From positions 27,591 to 91,590 of the forward strand of contig NZ_CAMYFI010000001.1 in NCBI RefSeq assembly GCF_947255005.1: a DNA stretch of 64,000 nucleotides. Reading direction: 5' to 3'. A program made the translations under genes and the position numbers. This DNA is from an uncultured Tessaracoccus sp. GTDB taxonomy: Bacteria > Actinomycetota > Actinomycetes > Propionibacteriales > Propionibacteriaceae. Under the pieces are notes generated by a model. That model saw nothing but the letters and a program-made list of their open reading frames with translations, was not told the DNA's origin and searched no databases. Shown here in pieces: positions 3,764-61,139 of this stretch. Positions within the stretch are counted from its first letter, which is position 1; the number at the start of each line of letters is the position of its first letter.

Positions 3764-4655
3764 CGAACTGGTGGCGGCGGCCGACGGGTCGTCGCTCAGC
3801 AATCCGGGACCGGCCGGCTGGGCCTGGTACATCGATGACACCTGCTGGGCGGCTGGTGGCTGGGAGCGCGGCACGAACAACATGGGTGAGCTCATGGCGG
3901 TGCTGCAATTGCTGCAATCCACCGCGAACAGCCCGCGCCCACTGAAGGTGCTGTGCGACTCGCAGTACGTCATCAACTCGATCACGAAATGGATGGCAGG
4001 TTGGAAGCGTAAAGGGTGGAAGAAAGCCGACGGCAAACCCGTCCAAAACGTTGAGCTCATGAAGGCCATCGACGAGGCCATGCGAGGCCGCAGCGTGTCG
4101 TTCGAGTGGGTGAAGGGGCACGCGGGGCATCGCCTCAACGAGGCCGCCGACGCCCGAGCTCGTGCCGTTGCCGAAGCGTTCCAATCCGGCCGTCGCCCAG
4201 ACGTCGGGCCAGGCTTCGACGGCGCTCCCGCCTGCAGCTCGGAGTCGGCCTTCGAAGTTGGGCAGTGTGAGGAAGAACCCGACTTGCTCACCGTCGCGGC
4301 GGAAACGGCGCCCACGAACCGCACGCCTGGCACGGCATCGTCCAGAATCAAGGGCGAGCTGTTAGCGCTCACCAAGAAGCTCGTCTCCGACGAAGTGCGC
4401 ACCGACGAGACCAAACTGAGCAAGTTGCTGCACCCCGACGTGATCTCGCACTCGGCAGATGGACAGGTCGTCGACGCAACGTATGGCGCCTGGAAACCGC
4501 TCGATGACAAGGGCTTCGAGGTGCTCGGCATCGATCAGTACGCCGACGGCGTGGTGGGCATGCGCTGGCAGCAGCGCACCAAACTGCGATTCAACCTGTG
4601 GCAGCGCACGGGCGGCGGCTGGAAGCTGCGCTTCGCGCAGGTCACGAAGCGCTGA
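3753..4655 (+). CDS. rnhA: Ribonuclease HI with a ~150-aa C-terminal NTF2/SnoaL-like extension
   Basis: RNase HI motifs DGSSLSNPGPAGWAWYI, MGELMAVLQLL, CDSQYV and WVKGHAGHRLNEAADARA. The start at ATG 3753 overlaps the add stop. The C-terminal ~150 aa resembles NTF2-like/DUF4440 folds. Confidence 0.8.
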   Translation: MATDELVAAADGSSLSNPGPAGWAWYIDDTCWAAGGWERGTNNMGELMAVLQLLQSTANSPRPLKVLCDSQYVINSITKWMAGWKRKGWKKADGKPVQNVELMKAIDEAMRGRSVSFEWVKGHAGHRLNEAADARARAVAEAFQSGRRPDVGPGFDGAPACSSESAFEVGQCEEEPDLLTVAAETAPTNRTPGTASSRIKGELLALTKKLVSDEVRTDETKLSKLLHPDVISHSADGQVVDATYGAWKPLDDKGFEVLGIDQYADGVVGMRWQQRTKLRFNLWQRTGGGWKLRFAQVTKR

Positions 4656-4662
4656 CAGCGGC

Positions 4663-5127
4663 TCAGCGGTGCGTCCACCGCTGAGCGGCTGAGATGGGCC
4701 GAGCAGGCCCGGCGCGCGTCACGAGCGTGAGATAGACCGTCGCAACGACGGCGATCCACCCCGCCATGACGGCCGGAATCAGGAAGATCCCGGCCATGTC
4801 GGCCAGCGTGTAGTGCTCCTGCTGTTCCGGGGCACCGAGAAAGTACGTCACCTGATAGGCGACAATCCCGCCGATGATGCCGATCACGAACATCGTGATC
4901 GTCCATATTGTGCCGAAGCGCGGATCACGCTTCGGGTGCTCGAGAGAAATCAACAGCCCAGCCAACCAGATGACACCGCCGGCGATCCCTGCTCCGAGGA
5001 GATGACCTTTCGCCAGGAGCTGTTGCAGCCCCCACTCAACGCCGAACAGCAACGTGAACGCCAGGCCCACCCACACAGCGACGAGCAACACCAGCAGTCG
5101 AACGATGTGTCGCATACCTTCGAGCAT
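4663..5127 (-). CDS. Small integral membrane protein (about 4 TM helices), function unknown
   Basis: Four hydrophobic helices visible in the translation. No recognisable motif. Confidence 0.5.
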   Translation of the reverse strand: MLEGMRHIVRLLVLLVAVWVGLAFTLLFGVEWGLQQLLAKGHLLGAGIAGGVIWLAGLLISLEHPKRDPRFGTIWTITMFVIGIIGGIVAYQVTYFLGAPEQQEHYTLADMAGIFLIPAVMAGWIAVVATVYLTLVTRAGPARPISAAQRWTHR

Positions 5128-5231
5128 ATGGGCAACCTGGGTTCAGGAGCCGCATCCCCGTCTTCCGCGCCTGGCAACGCGAGCTGCCCTTTCCCGCACC
5201 CCAAGCGCCTGCAGCGACTAGCATCACGAGT

Positions 5232-17516: not shown

Positions 17517-18517
17517 ACCTGCACGATCAACTTGAAGAACTCGCGCCCAGCATGTCCACGCGTGGCCTCGCGAGCGGTGTGCGCAAGCGGCGGCGTCGGC
17601 GCCAAACACTCGCCGCAGGAACGGCAACGGCGGCAGTTGCGCTCGTGGTGGTCGGTGGAGTGTTCCTACAGACCGGGACACGCCCAGTGCCCTCGACGTA
17701 TGTGGACGCCGTTCCGGGAACGATGCACGGTGAGGAAGTGCTCTCCGAGCATCCTGCATCGCCGAGTGCCGAGCCAGCCCAGCAACTCGTCGCAGGACAC
17801 GTGACGTTGCTGCGCAAAGATGCGAACTCCCCGGCGGTGATGTGCACTGCGGTGATGGAGAGCGCGCCGCCGCAGTGTGAAGGGCCAACCGTGATCGGCG
17901 AGATCGATTGGGACAAGATCGATGCCAGCACGTACGCCGGGGCGCCAGGGTTCCGCGATGCGGACGCGTGGGTCGTCGGGTACTTCGACAGCAAGAAGCG
18001 AACTTTCACGCTGGCTCAGCCGCCGACGCTGGAGCAGCCCAAGGGAGCAATGGCGGACAAGGAAGACCCCGTCGACTTCCCGCAGTTGTGCGACGACCCT
18101 CTGGCCGGCGCTCAGAAGGGTGGAAGAAACGATCGCGATGCGCTCATCCGCAAAGCTGAGGCGCTGCCTGGCTACGTCGACTCGTGGGTGAGCGATGGTT
18201 CTAACGCCTTGAACGTGGTGGTCAGGCACGATGCGAAGGGTGCGTTCAAGAGCCTTCGAGAGGTGTGGCAAGGCGAGCTGTGCGTGGAAGCACGAGATGT
18301 TCCCAATACCGAGCAGATCCGCGCCGCGCACGACGCGCTGGTTCCCTTGCGCAAGGACGTCCCGGATCTGAGCGTGTCCAAAGATAACCAAGGGGTCGTG
18401 GTGTCCGCCTGGTTCATCGATGAAGCCACGAAGATGCGCATTCACGAACTCGCTGAGGCGCATGTGCCTGCCGATGCGGTGACGATCCAATCAACCCTCA
18501 AACCGCTCGCCAAGTAG
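17513..18517 (+). CDS. Membrane protein co-transcribed with the ECF sigma factor (candidate atypical anti-sigma or sigma-partner protein): ~31-aa cytoplasmic N-terminus, one TM helix, ~280-aa Cys-containing extracytoplasmic domain
   Basis: ATGA overlap with the sigma-factor stop. N-terminus RKRRRRRQ precedes a hydrophobic helix AAGTATAAVALVVVGGVFL. Confidence 0.55.
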   Translation: MNLHDQLEELAPSMSTRGLASGVRKRRRRRQTLAAGTATAAVALVVVGGVFLQTGTRPVPSTYVDAVPGTMHGEEVLSEHPASPSAEPAQQLVAGHVTLLRKDANSPAVMCTAVMESAPPQCEGPTVIGEIDWDKIDASTYAGAPGFRDADAWVVGYFDSKKRTFTLAQPPTLEQPKGAMADKEDPVDFPQLCDDPLAGAQKGGRNDRDALIRKAEALPGYVDSWVSDGSNALNVVVRHDAKGAFKSLREVWQGELCVEARDVPNTEQIRAAHDALVPLRKDVPDLSVSKDNQGVVVSAWFIDEATKMRIHELAEAHVPADAVTIQSTLKPLAK

Positions 18518-18545: not shown

Positions 18546-18630
18546 CTGACCGGTATCCTCCACGCCTGCAACAAATCCCCGAAAACCGGGGTTCGCAAGC
18601 AACAGGTGGAGGATAACGGTCAACTTTTTC
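18546..18630. repeat. Palindromic repeat element, copy A (~80 bp). 18-bp inverted arms CTGACCGGTATCCTCCAC / GTGGAGGATAACGGTCAA with a ~42-nt spacer containing a nested CCCCGAAAACCGGGG hairpin, followed by TTTTT.
   Basis: The same element occurs at 33303-33381 and 34285-34362. The downstream T-run gives it terminator-like geometry after the 17513-18517 gene. Confidence 0.6.
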
Positions 18631-31110: not shown

Positions 31111-33287
31111 GGTCGATCACCCACTTCGTGCGCTATGAATTCCGACGCTTCAAGGGCGTTCCCCGCCTCGCGCTCATCTTCGTGCTGCTGCTGCCGCTGC
31201 TCTATGGCGTCATCTATCTGGGTGCCAACTGGAACCTCTACGACAACATCGACGAGATCAAGGTTGCCGTAGTCAACAACGACAAACCCACGAAATTCGA
31301 GGGCATGGAAATCGACGGCGGCGGCCAATTCGTCGAGGCGCTGCGCGACCGTCCTGTATTCGACTGGCAGTTCTTAGACTCCGAGGAGGAGGCGCGAGAA
31401 GGGCTGCGCGAAGGCGAGTACTACATGGTCATCACGGTGCCCGAGGATTTCTCGTCGAACCTCGTGAGCGCCGGCAACTACGATCCGAAACGTGCCGTGA
31501 TCACCATGCATCGCGACGACGCCAACGGGTTCATCATCGGCTCGCTCACAGGTAAAGCCGAGGACACGCTCGCGAAGACCCTCGACTCCACCGTCTCCGA
31601 CGCCTATTTCCGGGCACTGTTCGGTTCGCTGGAGGAGATCCGGCAGGGAATGCTGGACGCCGCAGACGGGGCAGGGCAGCTCGACGACGGGCTCAGCCAG
31701 GTGAAGGATGGCGTCGCCCAGATGCACGAGAAACTCCTCGAAGCCTCCAGCAAAACCGACGGCCTTGTCGACACCGCCAATGCCATAGAGCAGGGGCTCG
31801 ACGGTGTGAGCGCGTCGGTGGACGAGATGGCCAAGGGAGCCGCGCAGATGCGCTCGGGGGCGAGCACCGTCGCGGATGCGGGGGTGGCGGTGTCCGGGAG
31901 CCTCCAGGCCGCTGCTGCGCAGGTCGACCCGCTCATCAACCACGCGCTCGGGCAATTGCCGAAGGTGCGGGATCAGGCGGGCCAGCTGGTCAACGTGCAG
32001 GGCGAGATCAACAGCGACGGCGGCGGGCTCGTCGTCGACCTGAACCGTCACGTCGACCGGGCGCGCACGCACTCCAGCAGCCTCGGCGCGAAATACCCCG
32101 AACTCGCCAAGGACAAGGATTTCATCGCGCTCACGCGCGAGCTCGATGGGGCGCGGAACTCGCACGTGACGCTCACATCGAAGCTCGACCAGGCTGCCAC
32201 GCTCACGGCAGGTATCAACCTCCAGCTCGACACAAGCGGCCTGGAGAATGCGGCCCGCAACGCAAAAACGTCGCTCGACAACGCGCGGAAGCAGGCGGGC
32301 AGTGTCGATGATGGGGTCGCGGCCATGCGGGCCGGTGCGGGCACCGTCGATAAGGGCCTCCAAGACGGCCGCGACGCCCTGCGCAGCGTCGGTGCACAGG
32401 CGCGTTCGATCACTGACTCGATCCCCGAAGTCGTCGACGGCGTGGTGCGACTCACTGACGGTGTGGGTCAGCTCAACACCGCGGTCCCGCAGCTCTCCGA
32501 TGGCGCTCACAAGCTTCGTACCGGGCTTGATGACGGCGCCCGGCGCCTGCCGCAACTGAGCGATTCCGAGCAAGAGAACCTGGCCGTCGTGATGAGCTCC
32601 CCAGTGGATCTGAAACAAATCGTCGATCACGACGCCGAGAACTACGGACGCGGCCTGGCGCCTCTGTTCGCCTCGATCGGTCTGTGGATTTTGTGCATCT
32701 CCGGATTCCTCGTCGTGCGCACGATCTCCGGCCGCGCGCTCACCGGGCGAGGCAACCCGCTGCGCATCGCGGCAACTGGGCTCGGGCCGATCGCAGCCAT
32801 CGGCCTCGCGGCTTCCTGGCTCATGGGATTCGGCTTGTGGTTCTTCCTCGGCCTGAACCCCGTGCACCCGCTGCTGTTCTTCCTGCTGTTGACGGTCTCG
32901 TCGTTGTCATTCCTGTCGCTGGCATACATGTTCCGGGTGATCTTGGGGTCACCCCAGACCGCGCTGTTCCTGGTGTGGCTCATCATCCAGATTCCGTCCA
33001 GCGGCGGCACCTTCCCGGTGCAGATGTTGCCGCCGCTGTTCCAATACCTGGCTCCCATCTCGCCCATGTGGTACAGCGTGACGGCCTTTAGAGTGACGAT
33101 CTCCGGGGGGTCGATGGCCACGTATTGGACGTGCGTCGGAGTGTTGGCCGGGGTGCTGGCGCTGGCGGTGACCGCGTCGGTGCTGCTCATCCGGCGCAGG
33201 CAGCGATTCCGCATGCGCGACCTGCACCCGCCGATGATCACGTCGGAAACGACCGCGGACTACGCCTTCTCGATCCGCCCGCGCTGA
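31107..33287 (+). CDS. YhgE/Pip-domain membrane protein (ABC-2-type permease with large extracellular coiled-coil domain)
   Basis: N-terminal YhgE/Pip signature RYEFRRFKG...IYLGANWNLYDNIDEIKVAVVNND. C-terminal 6-TM ABC-2 domain. Confidence 0.8.
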   Translation: MRSITHFVRYEFRRFKGVPRLALIFVLLLPLLYGVIYLGANWNLYDNIDEIKVAVVNNDKPTKFEGMEIDGGGQFVEALRDRPVFDWQFLDSEEEAREGLREGEYYMVITVPEDFSSNLVSAGNYDPKRAVITMHRDDANGFIIGSLTGKAEDTLAKTLDSTVSDAYFRALFGSLEEIRQGMLDAADGAGQLDDGLSQVKDGVAQMHEKLLEASSKTDGLVDTANAIEQGLDGVSASVDEMAKGAAQMRSGASTVADAGVAVSGSLQAAAAQVDPLINHALGQLPKVRDQAGQLVNVQGEINSDGGGLVVDLNRHVDRARTHSSSLGAKYPELAKDKDFIALTRELDGARNSHVTLTSKLDQAATLTAGINLQLDTSGLENAARNAKTSLDNARKQAGSVDDGVAAMRAGAGTVDKGLQDGRDALRSVGAQARSITDSIPEVVDGVVRLTDGVGQLNTAVPQLSDGAHKLRTGLDDGARRLPQLSDSEQENLAVVMSSPVDLKQIVDHDAENYGRGLAPLFASIGLWILCISGFLVVRTISGRALTGRGNPLRIAATGLGPIAAIGLAASWLMGFGLWFFLGLNPVHPLLFFLLLTVSSLSFLSLAYMFRVILGSPQTALFLVWLIIQIPSSGGTFPVQMLPPLFQYLAPISPMWYSVTAFRVTISGGSMATYWTCVGVLAGVLALAVTASVLLIRRRQRFRMRDLHPPMITSETTADYAFSIRPR

Positions 33288-33302
33288 TCGTCGCCAGAGC
33301 AG

Positions 33303-33420
33303 TTGACCGTTATCCTCCACGCCTGCAGAAAATCCCCGAAATGAGGGGGCCAGAAGCTTCTCGCGGAGGATAACGGTCAACTTTTCGGCCTTCCCCCGAA
33401 ATTTCCCCTGTGGAAAACGG
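33303..33420. repeat. Palindromic repeat element, copy B (arms TTGACCGTTATCCTCCAC / GCGGAGGATAACGGTCAA, spacer with CCCCGAAATGAGGGGG hairpin, then CTTTTC) plus an adjacent partial copy (CCCCCGAAATTTCCCC...GTGGAGG)
   Basis: Same family as 18546-18630 and 34285-34362. Lies immediately after the YhgE/Pip stop. Confidence 0.6.
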
Positions 33421-33453
33421 GCGTGGAGGGGTGCTGGTTACCAATCCTGTTGC

Positions 33454-34287
33454 ATGGACTTTTTCGCAAACCAGCCCATCATCGCTGTCAGAGACCACCC
33501 GCACCTCGCCAACGCCCTGCGCTCCATGCGGCGCCGCGGCAAAGCGTGGTCGCCGCTACCTGGCGTCTACGCCCACCCCAACGTGCCCGACACGTGGGAG
33601 ACCCGCGTGCTCGCCGCGATGGCATGGGCGCCCGACCACGCTCTCGTCGGTGCCTCCGCCGCTCGCGTGACGTGGTGGGACGACCTGCCCATCGACGACA
33701 TCGAGCTGTGGGGCGCGCGTAAAGAATCTCCGGTGCCGTGGCTCACGGTGCGGCGCGCGTCGCTCGACCCCGACGTCATGATCTGGCACGACGACTACAA
33801 GGTCGCGGCCCCTGCGCTGTCGGCGGTGCAGCTGGTGAAGAGCATGGGTGGCAACGCCGTCGACGAGGCACTGCGGCGCGGCGTGGCCACCGTCGCTGAC
33901 ATGCACCTGGCACTGAGCCATGTGCCGGGGCACGCGGGAAATCGCCTTGCCAGGCGCATCTTGTGGGAATCCAGGGACGTGCCGTGGTCGGAGTTCGAGC
34001 GGCTCGCCCACACGATGCTGCGACGTGCCCGCATCACGGGTTGGAAAGCGAACGCTACCGTGCAGGTGGGCGGCATGGTCTTTCCCGCCGACCTGCTGTT
34101 CGGCGGCAGCAAGCTCGTCGCGGAGCTCGACGGCTATGAATTCCACAAAGAGCGCGCAACATTCGTGCGCGATCGAGTGAAGCAGAACCTGCTCACCCTG
34201 GCCGGATGGCAGGTGCTGCGGTTCACGTGGGAGACGATCGACGACCTCGTGCCGCAAATCCGCCAGGCGCTCAGTCAGAAGAGATGA
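33454..34287 (+). CDS. DUF559 (Vsr-like PD-(D/E)xK endonuclease-fold) domain protein with an AbiEi-like N-terminus
   Basis: C-terminal motif ELDGYEFHKERATFVRDRVKQNLLTLAGWQVLRFTWE, typical of DUF559. Flanked on both sides by the palindromic element. Confidence 0.7.
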   Translation: MDFFANQPIIAVRDHPHLANALRSMRRRGKAWSPLPGVYAHPNVPDTWETRVLAAMAWAPDHALVGASAARVTWWDDLPIDDIELWGARKESPVPWLTVRRASLDPDVMIWHDDYKVAAPALSAVQLVKSMGGNAVDEALRRGVATVADMHLALSHVPGHAGNRLARRILWESRDVPWSEFERLAHTMLRRARITGWKANATVQVGGMVFPADLLFGGSKLVAELDGYEFHKERATFVRDRVKQNLLTLAGWQVLRFTWETIDDLVPQIRQALSQKR

Positions 34288-34362
34288 CCGTTATCCTCCA
34301 CGAGGAGCGGTTGGCCCCCTAATTTCGGTAGAAATCGTCAGGTGTGGAGGATAACGGTCAAC
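34285..34362. repeat. Palindromic repeat element, copy C (spacer inverted relative to copy B); overlaps the DUF559 stop codon
   Basis: Arms TGACCGTTATCCTCCAC / GTGGAGGATAACGGTCAA. The reverse complement of the spacer (CCGAAATTAGGGGGCCAA) matches the copy B spacer (CCGAAATGAGGGGGCCAG). Confidence 0.6.
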
Positions 34363-34371
34363 ATCGACGGG

Positions 34372-35988
34372 TCAGCGCAGCCAAGCCGTGGTGTTGGCCG
34401 GGATCTCGCCTTCGACGGGGTGGCTTGCGACGAGGACCTCCCGCCCAGCAGGCACGGGCACGGGGCGACCCGAGACGTTGACGATCACCTGCACACCAGC
34501 GTTGTCGAACATCAGCACGCCCTCGGGGGCTTCGAGCCATGTCAGGGTGCCTGCGCCGAGCCCTAGCTCCTTGCGCAGGCGCAGAAGCCGACGGTACAAC
34601 TCCAGCGTGGAGCCCGCGACCCCGCGCTGCTGGGCCACCGCATAGTGCGCGTAATGCTCGGGCTGGGGCAGCCACGTCTTGCCGGTGGGGGAGAAACCCA
34701 TGCCCGGCGCCTCGGCGTTCCAGGGCAGCGGGATGCGGCACCCGTCGCGGCCGAGCTCCTCGTGGTTGGACTGGAACCAGGCAGGGTCCTGGCGGTACTC
34801 GTGGGGAAGGGTCGTGTGGTCGGGCAGGCCCAGCTCCTCACCCTGGTAGAGGTAGGCCGAACCGGGCAGCGCCAGCTCGAGCATCGTCGCCGCGCGGGCG
34901 CGGCGAAGGCCGAGCTCCTCGTCGGGTTGCGGATCGCCGGGTCCGAGAAACTCCTTGTGGACGCCCGGTTCGTCCTCGCGTCCGAGCCGGGAGGTGTGCC
35001 GCATGGTGTCGTGGTTCGACAGCACCCACGTCGTGGGTGCGCCCACCTTGGCATCCGCGGCCAGCGATGTCTCGATCTGCTCGCGATAGTGCTCAGCATC
35101 CCACTCGCAGGTGAGGAACCCGAAGTTGAACGCGGTGTGCATCTCGTCGTCGCGCAGGTATAGCGCCAGCCGGTCGGGGTCATCCACCCAAGCTTCTGCG
35201 ACGAGGATGCGCTCGCCCTCGTACGAGTTGAGGATCGCCCGCCATCGCCGATACACCTCGTGCACGCCGTCTTGATCCCACATGGGGCCCTGGCCGCCTG
35301 AGATCATCCGGTAGTCGGCGTCGTCGTCGGGAAGTCCGGGGGCCTTCACCAGGGAGTGCGCCACGTCGACGCGGAACCCGTCGACGCCGAGGTCGAGCCA
35401 GAACCGCAGGATGTGATCGAAGCCCTCGCGCACGCGCTCGTTGTCCCAGTCGAGGTCGGGTTGTGTGGTGTCGAATAGGTGGAGGTACCACTGTTCGGGG
35501 TTGCCGTTGGCGTCGTGGAGGCGTGTCCAGGCGTTGCCGCCGAAGATGGAGGTCCAGTTGTTCGGCGGCTGCTCCCCATTCTCTCCGCGGCCATCTGCGA
35601 AGTGGTACATCGCCCGTTCTGGCGAACCTGGGGCGGAGGCGAGCGCCGCCTGGAACCATTCGTGGTCGGCGCTGGTGTGGTTGGGAACGAGGTCGACGAT
35701 CAGCCGCAGCCCGCGCTGGTGGCACTCGTCGATCAGCCGGCGGGCGTCGTCGAGATCACCGAACATCGGGTCGATCGTCAGGTAGTCGGCGACATCGTAG
35801 CCGGCGTCTTTCATGGGGGAGCGGTAGAACGGCGAGCACCAGATGGCGTCGACGCCGAGGTCGCGGATGTGGTCGAGTCGCGAGATGATGCCCGCGAGAT
35901 CGCCGTACCCGTCGCCGTTCGCGTCGGCGAACGAGCGGGGGTAGATCTGGTAGATGACGGCGTCGCGCCACCACGAAGTGGTTGTCAT
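34372..35988 (-). CDS. aglA: GH13 alpha-glucosidase / oligo-1,6-glucosidase
   Basis: WWRDAVIYQIYPRSFAD, GVDAIWCSPF, DLVPNHTS and GFRVDV motifs. Confidence 0.9.
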   Translation of the reverse strand: MTTTSWWRDAVIYQIYPRSFADANGDGYGDLAGIISRLDHIRDLGVDAIWCSPFYRSPMKDAGYDVADYLTIDPMFGDLDDARRLIDECHQRGLRLIVDLVPNHTSADHEWFQAALASAPGSPERAMYHFADGRGENGEQPPNNWTSIFGGNAWTRLHDANGNPEQWYLHLFDTTQPDLDWDNERVREGFDHILRFWLDLGVDGFRVDVAHSLVKAPGLPDDDADYRMISGGQGPMWDQDGVHEVYRRWRAILNSYEGERILVAEAWVDDPDRLALYLRDDEMHTAFNFGFLTCEWDAEHYREQIETSLAADAKVGAPTTWVLSNHDTMRHTSRLGREDEPGVHKEFLGPGDPQPDEELGLRRARAATMLELALPGSAYLYQGEELGLPDHTTLPHEYRQDPAWFQSNHEELGRDGCRIPLPWNAEAPGMGFSPTGKTWLPQPEHYAHYAVAQQRGVAGSTLELYRRLLRLRKELGLGAGTLTWLEAPEGVLMFDNAGVQVIVNVSGRPVPVPAGREVLVASHPVEGEIPANTTAWLR

Positions 35989-57822: not shown

Positions 57823-57899
57823 TGGTGGCCAGGGCCGGGGTCGAACCGGCGACCTTTCACTTTTCAGGCGAACGCTGCTACCAACTGAGCTACCTGGCC
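57823..57899 (-). tRNA. tRNA-Phe (GAA), CCA encoded
   Basis: Cloverleaf GGCCAGG acceptor, GTTCGACC T-loop, anticodon loop CTGAAAA. Confidence 0.8.
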
Positions 57900-57922
57900 G
57901 TGCGGCCTGAATTCAGACCTAG

Positions 57923-57996
57923 CGACCCCGACGGGACTCGAACCCGCGACCTCCGCCGTGACAGGGCGGCGCGCTAACCAACTGCGCTACGGGGCC
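57923..57996 (-). tRNA. tRNA-Asp (GTC)
   Basis: GGCCCCGTAGCGCAGTTGGTTAGCGCG...CCTGTCACG anticodon loop. TTCGAGT T-loop. Confidence 0.8.
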
Positions 57997-58110
57997 AATT
58001 TCTTGACCTGCTGGCGTGAGCCAACTCGGCAACTATAGCCAGGCCTGCGTCGTTATGGGAAATCGACGTGGCGGGGCACTTCGTCGCCACTTCCCTCGCG
58101 GGAAGCTTCG

Positions 58111-58183
58111 CATCCCCAACGGGATTCGAACCCGTGTTGCCGCCGTGAAAGGGCGGAGTCCTAGGCCGCTAGACGATGGGGAC
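58111..58183 (-). tRNA. tRNA-Glu (TTC)
   Basis: GTCCCCATCGTCTAGCGGCCTAGGAC...CCTTTCACGG, closely parallel to the canonical bacterial tRNA-Glu. Confidence 0.8.
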
Positions 58184-58355
58184 CAGCTCGGAGAACTGTA
58201 CCGGATACCGGCCCGATCACACAAAGCGACGCCGACGTGCCTCGTCGAACCCCACGGGCACGGCTCACGGCTCAGGTGACCTTCGTTGACGTTACAGTGC
58301 TGAGCAGTCGCCGAATCCCGCGACTGGACGCCTCCGCAATGGACAAGGGACATCC

Positions 58356-59183
58356 ATGACACTGCACCGACGCCGCGCGCGCGGCCTTCTCGTGCTTCTC
58401 GCCGTAGCGCTCACGCTGGGGGCCTGCTCATCCGGTGAAGAGCCAAGCCCGACGCAGAGCCCCGCTCCAACCGCCTCGAGCGCGTCCGAGGCCGAACAGC
58501 CAACGGGAGCGCCGAGCGAACCGTCGTCGAAAACTTCCGCCGCGGAAATGCAACAACCGCAAGGGCCGACGACGCCAGCCGCGTCGGGGGAGAGGGTGTC
58601 GCAGGAGCAGATCCAGGCGGCCATCGACGCGTTCGTGAAGAAGCACGAGGGGGCCCAGCAGATCCCGGGCAGCGAGATCGACCCCGGCGAACTCGCCGAT
58701 GATTCGGAAGATATGAAGATCGAACCCCAACAGTGCCGGGACTTCTACCACGATCTGCAGGATGGGGACTTGCCGGAGGGAGGCAGGACGCACGTCGCCA
58801 TACACCGCAATACCGGCTTGGGGAACGTGGTCTGGCTGAGCATCCAGGAATATCAGACCGCTGAGGATGCGCGGCAGATGGCAATCGACAGGGGTGAGCC
58901 GGTTCCGCATCAGTGCAATGAGGCAAAGACCGAAACCAATGGCGTCATGATGACCCTGCACTACACGCAGCTCGAGGCGCCGACGTTCGACAACGTCGAC
59001 ATGACAAGCGCCATGCACATGGTTCAGACCATCCCCGGGGGTGCGTCTACCACCACCAACTCCGTGAGCGCGTTGAAGGGCAACGTGGTGGTCTCCTCGT
59101 CGCTGCATTCGGTGGACGGCTCACTCACCCCGCAGGAGGCGGTGGCCATCGTCCGGGACGCTTTGGAGGCGATGGAGCAGTAG
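58356..59183 (+). CDS. Secreted lipoprotein, unknown function
   Basis: Signal/lipobox LLVLLAVALTLGACSSG then a Pro/Ser-rich low-complexity linker. Confidence 0.5.
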   Translation: MTLHRRRARGLLVLLAVALTLGACSSGEEPSPTQSPAPTASSASEAEQPTGAPSEPSSKTSAAEMQQPQGPTTPAASGERVSQEQIQAAIDAFVKKHEGAQQIPGSEIDPGELADDSEDMKIEPQQCRDFYHDLQDGDLPEGGRTHVAIHRNTGLGNVVWLSIQEYQTAEDARQMAIDRGEPVPHQCNEAKTETNGVMMTLHYTQLEAPTFDNVDMTSAMHMVQTIPGGASTTTNSVSALKGNVVVSSSLHSVDGSLTPQEAVAIVRDALEAMEQ

Positions 59184-59239
59184 CGCAAGCGCAGGGCGCA
59201 TCCTTGCATCGGTGTGCACCTGGCGCTGTACGACCGGCA

Positions 59240-60661
59240 TCAGTTCGAACTGATGTGCACGTGGTCGTAGTGGTTCGCGGTGTCGCTTCCGCGATTCGAC
59301 ATCGGGCGCCACCCCTCCCTGCTGCGCGCAACGCTCCAGATCTTCTGATCCCAGATGATGTACTTGATGTTCAGCTCGCGCGCGTACTTCTGGTAGTAGC
59401 GGGCAACTTGCCACCCAAGCTGATTGTTCTTCTTGTAGTTGGGGATCATGAGGTCGACGGCGCGCCCAGCCGGGTGATCCGGGGTCACGTCGCGACGCCA
59501 CCCGTAGTGGGTCTTGATCTGCGGGAAGCGCGCCCATGCGTCGGCGGAGATGCGCTGGATATACGGGTTCGTCCGGTGCATGCCCGACGAGTACCCCTTG
59601 TTGAGGGCTTTGCCGCGAGGGCCGCCGGTGATGGGTGTGGTCGGGAGGGTACCCGAGCTGCTCCAAGCATCGGGCGCGGGCGTCGACGGTGCGGTCGAGG
59701 TGGTGTAGCGAGAGGTCACCCAGCGCAGCGCGCCCTTATGCACAATCTCGGCGCGTCCGTTGGCGACCTTGCCGGTAATGGCGATCTCAGAGCCCTTGGG
59801 GATCTCGTGGTTGTAGCGTGATCCGCTGCTGGCGTACCAGATGTTGAGGTCTGCGGTGGCCCAGCGTTTCGTCGTTGACGGCAGCTTGGCGTTGTTGCCC
59901 GGGTTCGTGGACGACGCATCGACACTGCGGAGCCACTTCGACGCCGCCCAGCGTTTGCTCCCCTGGTAGATCACCTCGGTGAATTCACCATGCGTGCGGC
60001 CCGTCACGGGCAGCAGGCTACCCTTCTTAGCCGTCGCTATGCGGCGGTGCTTCGTGCCAGGCCCCATGCGCACATTCAGGTTTTCGGTGGTTTGTGCCAT
60101 GCGCGTTCCGCGGGTGGATGCCGACGGTGCCGGTGCGGCACCCGTCGTTGGGGACGTCAAATATCTGGTGGCCACCCAGCGAGGTGCGCCCTTCCAGCTG
60201 ATCTGCGTGTACTCGCCGGAACGCTTTCCGGTGAGGCTCACGACGGTGCCCTTCGTAGCCAGGGCGACGCGTTGGTGTTTGATGGACGGGCCAGATCGGA
60301 CGATGAGGTTCGCTGTTGTGCGGGATCGTCCGGATGCCGATGCCGAGGTCACCGGGGCTGCCGGCTGACGCGTCGTGGTGAGGTATTTCGAATAGACGTA
60401 GGCCACGCGCCCGTTCCAGGTGACCTTCGTCCAGCCGTTCGCGGTGCCGGAGGCATGCACCTTCGCTCCGGGGTTCAGAATCGTGAGGGACTTGCTGTTC
60501 GTCGTGGGTTGCGTGCGGACGTGCACCCGTGTAGTTGCCTGCACAGTGCCAGAATGTGCGTCCGCGCCTGGCCCGGTGGCCAGGGATCCGAACAGTTGAA
60601 CTCCGAGCGCCAAGGAGGCAGCAGCCGCAGTCACGCGCAGCCCTTGGATAGCCCTCACCAT
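59240..60661 (-). CDS. Secreted cell-wall hydrolase: signal peptide, 3-4 bacterial SH3 (SH3b) repeats, C-terminal LAS/M15-family peptidase domain
   Basis: Repeated ~60-aa units (TANLIVRSGPSIKHQRVALATKGTVVSLTGKRSGEYTQISWKG...). C-terminal HxxGxAxD (DHPAGRAVDL) and HYDHVH metal-ligand motifs. Confidence 0.75.
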   Translation of the reverse strand: MVRAIQGLRVTAAAASLALGVQLFGSLATGPGADAHSGTVQATTRVHVRTQPTTNSKSLTILNPGAKVHASGTANGWTKVTWNGRVAYVYSKYLTTTRQPAAPVTSASASGRSRTTANLIVRSGPSIKHQRVALATKGTVVSLTGKRSGEYTQISWKGAPRWVATRYLTSPTTGAAPAPSASTRGTRMAQTTENLNVRMGPGTKHRRIATAKKGSLLPVTGRTHGEFTEVIYQGSKRWAASKWLRSVDASSTNPGNNAKLPSTTKRWATADLNIWYASSGSRYNHEIPKGSEIAITGKVANGRAEIVHKGALRWVTSRYTTSTAPSTPAPDAWSSSGTLPTTPITGGPRGKALNKGYSSGMHRTNPYIQRISADAWARFPQIKTHYGWRRDVTPDHPAGRAVDLMIPNYKKNNQLGWQVARYYQKYARELNIKYIIWDQKIWSVARSREGWRPMSNRGSDTANHYDHVHISSN

Positions 60662-60800
60662 GTCTCCTCACGTTGTGGACAGAACTCCCGGATGCACCGC
60701 TTCCCCGGAATCATGAGACTCCCGGCACATCCGGTCCCGAGGACACTAGGGCCCCCAAAGTGGCAGGGACAAGGCAGGTTGATGGTTGGTTGAGGTTTGA
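60662..60800 (-). ncRNA. Candidate structured 5' leader (possible ydaO-type c-di-AMP riboswitch) of the SH3b-M15 hydrolase gene
   Basis: Minus-strand leader reads ...UUUGGGGGCCCUAG...CCGGAUGUGCCGGG...GAUUCCGGGGAAGCGGUGCAUCCGGGAG... These resemble the conserved GGGGGACCC / GGGUGAAUCC / CCCGG blocks of the ydaO class, which commonly precedes actinobacterial cell-wall hydrolase genes. Confidence 0.3.
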
Positions 60801-61063
60801 ACGCACGGAGCCACGCCGGTACGTCGCTACGAATCACACACATGTAATTCTTACGGCTAGGCGTCTCTGACTAGGGGTTATGTTGACTACTGCGGCACAT
60901 CCTGGCGTGGCAGTAGAGCTGAATAAAGCCTGAGTGTAACTCTCAGCGAATCACTTGAAGTACAGCTTGAGGTTCAGGTTGTAGCAGGTTGAGGTTTGAA
61001 TCCATCGCACCAGTGTGTGCAGCGCAGTGGAAGCGAGCGATGCCGCACGTTGCATCGTCGTGG

Positions 61064-61139
61064 TGGTGCCCCCAGCGGGGATCGAACCCGCGACCCATGG
61101 ATTAAAAGTCCACTGCTCTGCCAACTGAGCTATAGGGGC
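61064..61139 (-). tRNA. tRNA-Lys (TTT), CCA encoded
   Basis: GCCCCTATAGCTCAGTTGGCAGAGCA...ACTTTTAATCC anticodon loop...GGGTTCGATCCCCGCTGGGGGCACCA. Confidence 0.8.

Follow-up and report, generated by a model that had tools for sequence, protein, structure and literature searches.

The three 80-bp palindromes of the window (the 64,000-nucleotide stretch of Tessaracoccus DNA analyzed here) were confirmed to be members of a dispersed repeat family, which is confined to a small Tessaracoccus-like clade. We read them, with moderate confidence, as copies of a REPIN/MITE-like family that spread once, that now forms hairpins at gene 3′ ends, and whose arms would be read by a sequence-specific factor. 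From the sequences and their arrangement we infer the past transposition, the role in termination or stabilization, and the existence of a binding protein.

A pattern search of the window for the arm GACCGTTATCCTCCAC and its reverse complement gave six matches with at most one mismatch, where 0.51 were expected and none of 100 shuffles reached six. The six matches form three pairs with a constant arm-to-arm span of 74 nt. Direct reading of the sequence verified the three loci that the initial annotation had placed at 18546, 33303 and 34285; the arms, given there as 17–19 bp, comprise 17 bp (a 16-nt arm plus one extra T...A pair), and the spacer, estimated at about 40–45 nt, measures 42 nt in the window copies. 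The copies and the features adjoining them are as follows.

18547 to 18629, plus strand: copy A, with the extra T (−1) at 18547, left arm 18548–18563 (one mismatch, GACCGgTATCC), 42-nt spacer 18564–18605 containing the inner hairpin CCCCG/CGGGG at 18577–18591, right arm 18606–18621, the extra A (+1) at 18622, and a T-run at 18625–18629.
33304 to 33385, plus strand: copy B, with left arm 33305–33320, spacer 33321–33362 containing the inner hairpin CCCC (33334–33337) / GGGG (33345–33348), right arm 33363–33378 (one mismatch, GcGGAGG), and a T-run at 33382–33385.
33399 to 33430, plus strand: leader block AAATTTCCCCTGTGGAAAACGGGCGTGGAGGG, 32 nt, upstream of the DUF559 gene and identical in four clade genomes.
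33454 to 34287, plus strand: DUF559 gene, 277 aa, between copies B and C.
34278 to 34360, minus strand: copy C, with both arms exact (34286–34301 and 34344–34359).
33304 to 34360, no strand assigned: the unit copy B–DUF559–copy C, 1,057 bp, with the two copies face to face.

Copy A lies 30 nt past the stop codon of the sigma-partner gene (TAG, 18515–18517), and purL begins 68–75 nt further on. Copy B lies 17 nt past the stop codon of the YhgE/Pip gene (TGA, 33285–33287), for which it is in the sense direction. Relative to the minus-strand alpha-amylase gene, copy C lies in sense orientation, with 12 nt between its end and the TCA stop of that gene (34372–34374), and its T-rich tail side provides the TGA stop (34285–34287) of the convergent DUF559 gene. 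The placement of A and B after stop codons, their T-runs, and the overlap of C with the DUF559 stop had been noticed from the letters of this stretch and hold as described. The same is true of the inverted spacer of copy C, because C aligns with A and B solely as their reverse complement. The inner CCCC...GGGG hairpin, which had been called conserved, is present in A and B but is weaker in C. The predicted RNA folds of the three copies have energies of −41 to −52 kcal/mol, with z values of −4.4 to −6.6.

A fourth, partial copy had been proposed at 33395–33420, but this segment went undetected by the family profile even at E≤10. It overlaps the leader block of the DUF559 gene, which holds the arm-like words GTGGAGG and GTGGAAAACGG. 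The leader core CTGTGGA is also found upstream of DUF559 homologues that bear other palindromes, so that the leader belongs with the gene family and is not a decayed element. The segment 33399–33430 is thus better read as the leader or promoter region of the DUF559 gene, a region whose resemblance to the element is limited to short words.

The extent of the family was determined by scanning one representative genome per species, from 185,579 species, with the pattern ACCGKTATCCTCC-N40-52-GGAGGATAMCGGT. This strict pattern gave 66 matches in 56 stretches. Sixty-five of them, all beyond the window, come from three related Propionibacteriaceae/Tessaracoccus MAGs: 23 from genome W (Propionibacteriaceae MAG, JAWFWL01), 23 from genome T (uncultured Tessaracoccus MAG, CAMYPD01) and 19 from genome O ('Actinomycetes' MAG, JAEZVO01). 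The remaining match, in a Planctomycetota contig (L025), sits at the end of the contig, where the sequence folds back perfectly on itself, and was discounted as an assembly artefact or a chance match; apart from it, no other species representative among the 185,579 matched the strict pattern. The suspicion of a multi-copy family of the REP/MITE type was thereby borne out, the genome-wide pattern search having found additional copies. The DNA of the window represents a fourth clade genome (X), nearest to T.

When the arms were relaxed to three mismatches inside the matched stretches, and the three copies of the window were counted in, 84 non-redundant copies were obtained at about 36 loci, with at least 23–29 copies per genome. 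Masking of partner copies resolved the loci into 35 flank-defined groups, or 36 once B and C are split. A 29-copy cluster with apparently shared flanks had been caused by partner copies inside the flanks and was gone after this masking. The arm-to-arm span is 74 nt in 67 of 85 pairs, 75 nt in 14 and 73 nt in three, the overall range being 73–80 nt; all arms in the collected loci are paired at 73–80 nt, save three that are cut by locus ends.

No copy was found by the family profile in the scanned outgroup loci L120–L128, and no degenerate copy was found by a profile search of 514 kb of clade DNA at E≤10. A metagenome scan with the 17-mer arm recovered six true copies, all on short contigs 92–99.6% identical to W, T or O; the other metagenome matches were chance single arms. 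Viral contigs gave only four single-arm matches and no family copy, and plasmid and phage collections held no match to the B–DUF559–C unit. A 52-nt tandem array with an arm-matching 20-mer (L101, L111) lies in an unrelated gltX/cysE-cysS setting and is probably coincidental.

Oriented by the spacer, the consensus reads T and GACCGTTATCCTCCAC, followed by the spacer GCCTGCAAAAAATC-GCCGAAAACCGGGGG-TCaatA-GCTTCTC, then GTGGAGGATAACGGTC, A, nn and TTTT. The element is about 83 bp long and consists of T plus the 16-nt arm, a 42-nt asymmetric spacer (in the order GCCTGCAAAAAATC, a small hairpin, GGGGG and GCTTCTC), the reverse-complement arm plus A, and NN TTTT. It is directional: the spacer is asymmetric, and T occupies positions +4 to +6 in 81–94% of loci, whereas the mirror A at −4/−5 occurs in only 50–64%. 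The sense-strand tail has at least four T among eight positions in 65 of the 84 copies, and a weak tail motif, G.T.CCC, reaches about +17. A minority subfamily has a more symmetric spacer and consequently a longer stem.

The minimum-energy fold pairs the arms in 83 of the 84 copies, and folding of the central 28 nt is more stable than that of shuffled sequences (mean z −1.5). Covariation was absent from the arms, and in the fixed-register inner helix none exceeded the shuffles. An inner hairpin followed by ATTTTTT on the antisense strand passes terminator criteria in 20 of 84 copies, copy A included, where 3.3 were expected; an antisense inner terminator is thus enriched but was discarded as a general feature. 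A consensus scan revealed no promoter-like site inside the element. Neither the window nor five loci gave an Rfam match at the gathering score, and none was obtained at E≤1 over 33250–34420. A coding reading was rejected, the arms being invariant at all codon positions and the elements lying outside the GC3-supported genes, and readings as attC, dif or DnaA boxes were ruled out on sequence and arrangement.

The arms themselves behave differently from a stem held by base pairing. All 82 aligned copies carry the same right arm; in the left arm, TTA>AAA or TTT variants occur, which are common to orthologues and are never compensated. It follows that the sequence is constrained, rather than pairing alone, and arms that are held by sequence imply a trans-acting factor that would read them.

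The copies were then placed relative to genes, with boundaries drawn by a GC3-based gene caller, and 71 copies could be classified. None of the 71 lies inside a gene; 24 are in convergent, 41 in co-directional and 6 in divergent regions, and most are at 40 nt or less from a stop codon. The link to gene 3′ ends that had been proposed from A and B is thus a property of the family. Orientation towards the adjacent gene is unbiased (29 sense, 37 antisense), and the T-run, which belongs to the element, is retained in either facing. In seven locus groups the stop codon of the neighboring gene is the TGA formed by the end of the right arm; the end of the left arm essentially never serves as a stop codon. 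Copies often form pairs, which stand either back to back at a distance of 33–109 nt or face to face with a gene between the two.

Nearly every copy occupies an orthologous site in two or three genomes. Copy A has orthologues at the same site in T (L035), O (L021) and W (L037), and copy B has orthologues at L004, L011 and L033. The dS of neighboring genes is 0.20–0.39 among X, T and O, and 1.0–1.3 between these and W. Over 39 orthologous pairs the arms are 98.2–98.5% identical, against 83% for the spacer and 78–86% for the flanks, values in which arm identity is inflated and the arm/spacer comparison biased by the gathering of copies with an arm-based pattern. In comparisons with W, the arms are 97–100% identical and the left flanks fall to 66–68%. 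For about three quarters of the W copies, T or O orthologues still pass the arm filter, and such retention, which neutral decay at a dS of about 1 could not yield, argues that the filter bias is not the whole effect. The earlier observation that the arms are conserved and the spacer divergent therefore extends from three copies to orthologues separated by saturated neutral sites, and it suggests that something reads the 17-bp arm sequence, which has remained nearly unchanged. Since the copies sit at orthologous sites and their arms are kept at a dS of about 1, the expansion of the family would predate the split between W and (X, T, O), and the family appears to have been static since then, with its arms under strong sequence-specific constraint.

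Target-site duplications were searched for at 40 offset combinations and none was detected: direct repeats of at least 3 nt occur in at most 5 of 36 loci at any offset, and complementarity of the flanks past the T...A pair is marginal only, at −3/+3. Solo arms, or longer elements with the same ends, were absent from the collected loci, the 514 kb of clade DNA and the metagenome scan. These results bear on the possibility of an ordinary MITE, that is, an internally deleted derivative of a DDE-transposase IS with 17-bp terminal inverted repeats that decayed neutrally after a burst. Several traits would suit such an origin: perfect 17-bp terminal inverted repeats that start with TGA, as do the ends of the IS3 family; a length of about 80 bp; the dispersed, intergenic and often paired copies; and the stop codons of seven gene groups within the arm. 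However, neutral decay would have erased the arms at a dS of about 1, and degenerate copies are lacking from the clade DNA searched. We consider a classical DDE-type MITE quite unlikely, since a duplication of the target site and, in the DNA searched, a parent element are both lacking and the arms have not decayed at this divergence. The suggested role of the arms as a transposition end was not supported either, for want of a duplication, a solo arm or a parent IS.

Another reading of the constraint on sequence rather than pairing is an immobile regulon, in which operator sites, or sites for a nucleoid protein, would have arisen or been recruited at many gene ends. Consistent with this, the two half-sites keep a fixed distance of 42 bp, and the element has both an A-tract and a T-tract. 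Convergence, however, cannot explain how about 36 unrelated loci came to hold an 83-bp unit with a spacer that is asymmetric and homologous throughout; the sites follow genes and do not precede them as promoters would, with only 6 of 71 copies in divergent regions; and the family appears abruptly in one clade. We regard this explanation as very improbable.

In each of the four genomes (X, T, O and W), two inverted copies enclose the DUF559 gene, and B and C are each in the sense direction for their outer gene (yhgE and the alpha-amylase gene, respectively). The bracketing of the DUF559 gene by B and C, as one inserted unit, had been overlooked in the initial annotation. The unit is absent from two outgroups, GCA_000619965.1 (L120; alpha-amylase identity 77%) and Tessaracoccus sp. 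OH4464_COT-324 (L121; 74%), in which yhgE and the alpha-amylase gene converge directly. The intergenic region there is 63–76 nt long and is filled by one native GC-rich hairpin, which has no T-run. In X, T, O and W this locus has no native hairpin any more and is occupied by the 1,057-bp unit. At this one locus, a native hairpin was thus replaced by copies of the family.

Rearrangements at the copies were also observed. In genome W (L033) the complete inner segment has the opposite orientation with respect to the outer genes, and the breakpoints fall within both copies, which shows that the copies are recombinogenic. At another site, O holds a single copy where T and W hold a back-to-back pair, and the junction is consistent with recombination between arms. 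Among the empty-site alleles that were sought, the composite unit is empty in the outgroups, but no clean filled-versus-empty case was found for a single element, only this pair-versus-single difference and the composite DUF559 unit. An empty site for copy A was looked for in the outgroups, where the gene order upstream of purL differs, so that no comparison could be made.

The protein encoded between B and C combines two domains. Its N-terminal approximately 180 aa are AbiEi-antitoxin-like, and its C-terminus is a DUF559 / Vsr-like PD-(D/E)XK nuclease domain (DUF559 / MTES_1575; Pfam match to DUF559, 1.9e-07), with D213, E224, D226, D240 and R241 invariant in the alignment. The profile of the protein family matches 3hrl and 3r3p in the PDB, the latter being the I-Bth0305I homing endonuclease domain (E 5e-4). 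In the AlphaFold model (pLDDT 93.1), the N-terminal approximately 180 residues match the AbiEi antitoxin 6y8q, and the C-terminus matches 3r3p (TM 0.70 on target) and the nuclease domains of PvuRts1I/AbaSI. In more distant homologues, the Pfam domain AbiEi_4 is present. The AbiEi family binds inverted repeats, as in AbiEi autoregulation. Full-text literature searches returned no paper linking AbiEi and DUF559. The gene is single-copy within the 514 kb of clade DNA sampled; its dN/dS is 0.07–0.11, like that of neighboring genes, and its dS equals theirs; it is vertically inherited under purifying selection.

Homologues of this gene are accompanied by other palindromes. In a sister lineage, the orthologue with 59% identity (L125/L132) sits at the same locus between two copies of a palindrome of another kind, also long-armed, whose arms are AATCGTCCCCGCATTCG and whose spacer measures about 29 nt. 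A more distant homologue (L129, 40% identity) has a 77-nt imperfect palindrome on either side, the two copies being in direct orientation, and the DUF559 homologues of L126 and L128 each adjoin the longest inverted repeat of their locus. A derivation of the L125 palindrome from the native hairpin of L120 may be conceivable; their sole similarity is a low-complexity match of the GTCGTCNCC type.

These observations raise the question of whether the repeats are dispersed partners of the bracketed AbiEi-like/Vsr-DUF559 nuclease, which would recognize the 17-bp arms and would have copied them or would still maintain them. This would parallel the RAYT–REPIN association, with a PD-(D/E)XK nuclease in place of the HUH tyrosine transposase. 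As a variant, the arms might be preserved, for instance, by a very-short-patch-type correction of mismatches; by extension, related actinobacterial DUF559 genes would each own a palindrome family. The constant position of the gene between inverted copies, the absence of the whole unit from L120 and L121, the single-copy state and vertical inheritance of the gene, the joining of AbiEi with the catalytic fold of I-Bth0305I, and the palindromes around or beside the homologues of 59% and 40% identity and those of L126 and L128 all point in this direction, as do the arm-like words in the strictly conserved leader. Against it, a GNAT gene and a SatD-family segment are likewise bracketed by face-to-face copies, so that bracketing is not unique to DUF559, and within 12 kb of L132 only the two flanking copies of the AATCGTCCCCGCATTCG palindrome are present. 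Long hairpins are normal terminators in these genomes, and single adjacent palindromes may therefore be ordinary; moreover, the leader motif is common to homologues with different palindromes and thus does not track the arm sequence. We hold a partnership with the nuclease to be possible but on the doubtful side. That the arms are read by a protein is probable from their conservation, and the bracketed nuclease is a candidate for this protein.

Mobilization of REP doublets by a classical RAYT, a Y1 (IS200-like) transposase encoded elsewhere, was also weighed. REPINs are defined in PMC3337134 and PMC5581495, together with a flanking-16-mer criterion, and the family matches the definition of PMC3337134 in having two inverted conserved ends and a less conserved spacer. 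Its extragenic copies, vertical inheritance, long persistence and lack of target-site duplication would also be expected. The arm TGACCGTTATCCTCCAC, however, has only two G, no internal dyad, and is not itself a palindrome; with so few G it cannot fold on itself. The conserved 5′ tetranucleotide of the GTAG type is absent, no Y1 transposase was seen within the 514 kb of clade DNA, in which the AbiEi–DUF559 nuclease was the sole enzyme-like gene encountered between copies, and RAYT–REP systems have been described mainly from Proteobacteria (PMC5581495). Mobilization by a classical RAYT is thus unlikely in our view.

The preferred reading, a family that spread once and settled at gene ends, accommodates these results as follows. 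A non-autonomous element of the REPIN/MITE type would have multiplied in the common ancestor of the small Tessaracoccus-like clade, leaving no target duplication, and would afterwards have been inherited vertically at fixed sites just beyond gene ends. There, the element may take the place of a native GC-rich hairpin terminator, and its 17-bp stem most likely ends the flanking transcripts, or stabilizes their 3′ ends, in either orientation. In the sense direction, the T-run of the element would complete a canonical terminator geometry. A trans-acting factor would recognize the sequence of the arms.

The role in termination or stabilization is suggested by this geometry, by the native hairpin that was replaced, and by the terminators of the outgroups, which consist of a hairpin only. 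The initial annotation had taken the copies for unusually long intrinsic terminators, and the stem, the T-run and the 3′-end sites agree with this, but the unbiased orientation (29 versus 37) and the 42 nt enclosed by the stem do not. Because no orientation is preferred, termination of the adjacent gene does not account for the conserved T-run, and the outer stem is passed over by the consensus scan.

Interspersed palindromic repeats (REP/REPIN, ERIC, Correia) are well described in Proteobacteria, and nothing comparable was found for Propionibacteriaceae in the literature searched; in the papers that full-text searches returned, such repeats were described neither for Tessaracoccus nor for Propionibacteriaceae. 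The family offers a natural experiment, in which about 36 sites can be traced across genomes with saturated dS while the arms are near frozen and the spacer and flanks drift. Such frozen arms are hard to explain without a factor that reads their sequence. If the nuclease were this arm reader, the family would represent a second, mechanistically distinct long-term association between a repeat and an enzyme, and would provide a first function for the widespread, uncharacterized actinobacterial AbiEi–DUF559 family. Because the elements mark 3′ ends, supply stop codons and mediate inversion, they matter for the annotation and assembly of MAGs.

The family was also compared with known systems. Integron attC sites form same-orientation arrays beside intI with RYYYAAC/GTTRRRY core sites, whereas the copies described here are dispersed in both orientations between housekeeping genes and end in TTGACCG/CGGTCAA. 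The bracketed protein resembles the free-standing homing endonucleases of the Vsr-like/EDxHD type (I-Bth0305I, 3r3p) in its C-terminal catalytic fold, with D213, E224 and D226 invariant, and its gene resembles theirs in being present or absent at a conserved chromosomal site. It differs from homing endonuclease genes in lying outside any intron or intein, in its fusion to an AbiEi-like domain, and in being bracketed by palindromes that are also dispersed genome-wide.

As in intrinsic terminators, a G+C-containing stem stands right after stop codons, at the position of a native hairpin and with a sense T-run; hairpin terminators without a U-tract are common in Actinobacteria. Unlike intrinsic terminators, the stem encloses 42 nt instead of a short loop of 3–8 nt, and one and the same 17-nt arm is repeated at about 36 loci. 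The element also faces either way with respect to the upstream gene, with no preference, and the arm sequence is constrained without covariation. Correia/NEMIS elements of Neisseria and the ERIC/IRU elements of enterobacteria are intergenic elements of 100–150 bp with long terminal inverted repeats, which are co-transcribed with their neighbors; their long stems act as RNase III or terminator-type signals, and they can donate gene ends. A TA duplication accompanies Correia elements, in which an IHF site and promoter elements are also found. The present family shares with Correia and ERIC the intergenic location, the long terminal inverted repeats, the long stem and the donation of gene ends, and differs in the lack of a duplication such as that of Correia elements, in its unrelated arms and in a stronger cross-species conservation at saturated dS.

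The likeness to REPINs and their RAYT genes (Bertels and Rainey; PMC3116915, PMC3337134, PMC5581495) extends to the conserved inverted ends, the variable spacer and the long hairpin overall, to the extragenic location of tens of copies per genome without target duplication, to vertical and long-lived inheritance at orthologous sites, and to a single-copy gene under purifying selection between inverted copies. Unlike those of REPINs, the arms of the family are not palindromic REPs and have no head of the GTAG type, and the element possesses its own T-run and is directional. The gene that the copies bracket encodes an AbiEi-like/Vsr-DUF559 nuclease instead of a Y1 HUH transposase, and the host is an actinobacterium.

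Comparison of genome W, one of the related metagenome-assembled genomes carrying the same palindromic repeat, with the window shows that the DUF559 segment lying between two copies of the element has flipped its orientation with respect to yhgE and the alpha-amylase gene (L033:4312-5362 in W compared with window 33304-34360). The breakpoints of this inversion fall within the elements, and inverted element copies are therefore substrates for recombination. A single copy was found in genome O (L055:7322) where genomes T and W hold a back-to-back pair (L039:3428 and 3577; L027:2320 and 2428), and the sequence on either side points to a deletion or a gain between the two identical left arms. Furthermore, two copies of genome T (L017:7050 and L028:347) have the right flank, the end of a GNAT gene, in common while their left flanks differ, which indicates that the GNAT segment was duplicated with the element aboard.

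The element also contributes to the ends of genes. For seven locus groups, the stop codon of the neighbouring gene is a TGA formed by the arm end on the T-run side, as in the examples below. Gene stops were essentially never found at the arm end away from the T-run, though TGACC is present at both ends.

Gene stops formed by the arm-end TGA
L007:3342
L008:4778
L013:7678
L015:5235
L041:6432
window 34285-34287

The sole Rfam matches in the window were four tRNA genes (57826-61139, minus strand).

Other palindromes were found around DUF559 homologues. The orthologous DUF559 gene of a sister lineage also occupies the yhgE/alpha-amylase site, flanked on each side by one copy of a different long-arm palindrome. 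Each of the 77-nt copies around a more distant homologue (L129) starts at the TGA that ends the preceding gene, an arrangement that looks like integration beside a terminator, or duplication of a terminator.

Palindromes bracketing DUF559 homologues
L125:1603-1677 and 2579-2651, sister lineage, arms AATCGTCCCCGCATTCG, spacer of about 29 nt
L132:4100-4174 and 5076-5148, same palindrome sequences as the L125 pair
L129:2827-2904 and 3911-3987, 77-nt imperfect palindrome in two direct copies, around a 40%-identical DUF559 homologue

In another relative (L126:3835-6197), a DUF559 homologue lies directly upstream of a shortened and highly diverged purL, whose alignment is limited to the C-terminal 352 amino acids at 50% identity; the equivalent position in the window is taken by the solo copy A.

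Two arm-like matches came from outside the clade. An unrelated organism has a tandem array of a 52-nt unit between gltX and cysE-cysS; the array contains the exact 20-mer AAATGACCGTTATCCTCCAC, a match longer than the 17-mer used as query; this is probably a coincidence.

Tandem array, metagenome Ga0209566
L111:7287-7698 and L101:14123-14276, 52-nt units, at least eight

The end of a Planctomycetota MAG contig (L025:7646-7725) is a perfect 80-nt palindrome containing the arm pattern by happenstance; it was rejected as a family copy because a perfect palindrome at a contig end looks like a fold-back assembly artefact.

Upstream of DUF559, a leader block (window 33399-33430) is identical across the four clade genomes even though dS is about 1. 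The core of this block, CTGTGGA, is found again ahead of distant DUF559 homologues (L125, around 1690-1730; L128, around 120-160; L129, around 2940-2955), and the L129 version, TTGTCCACA, fits the actinobacterial DnaA-box consensus.
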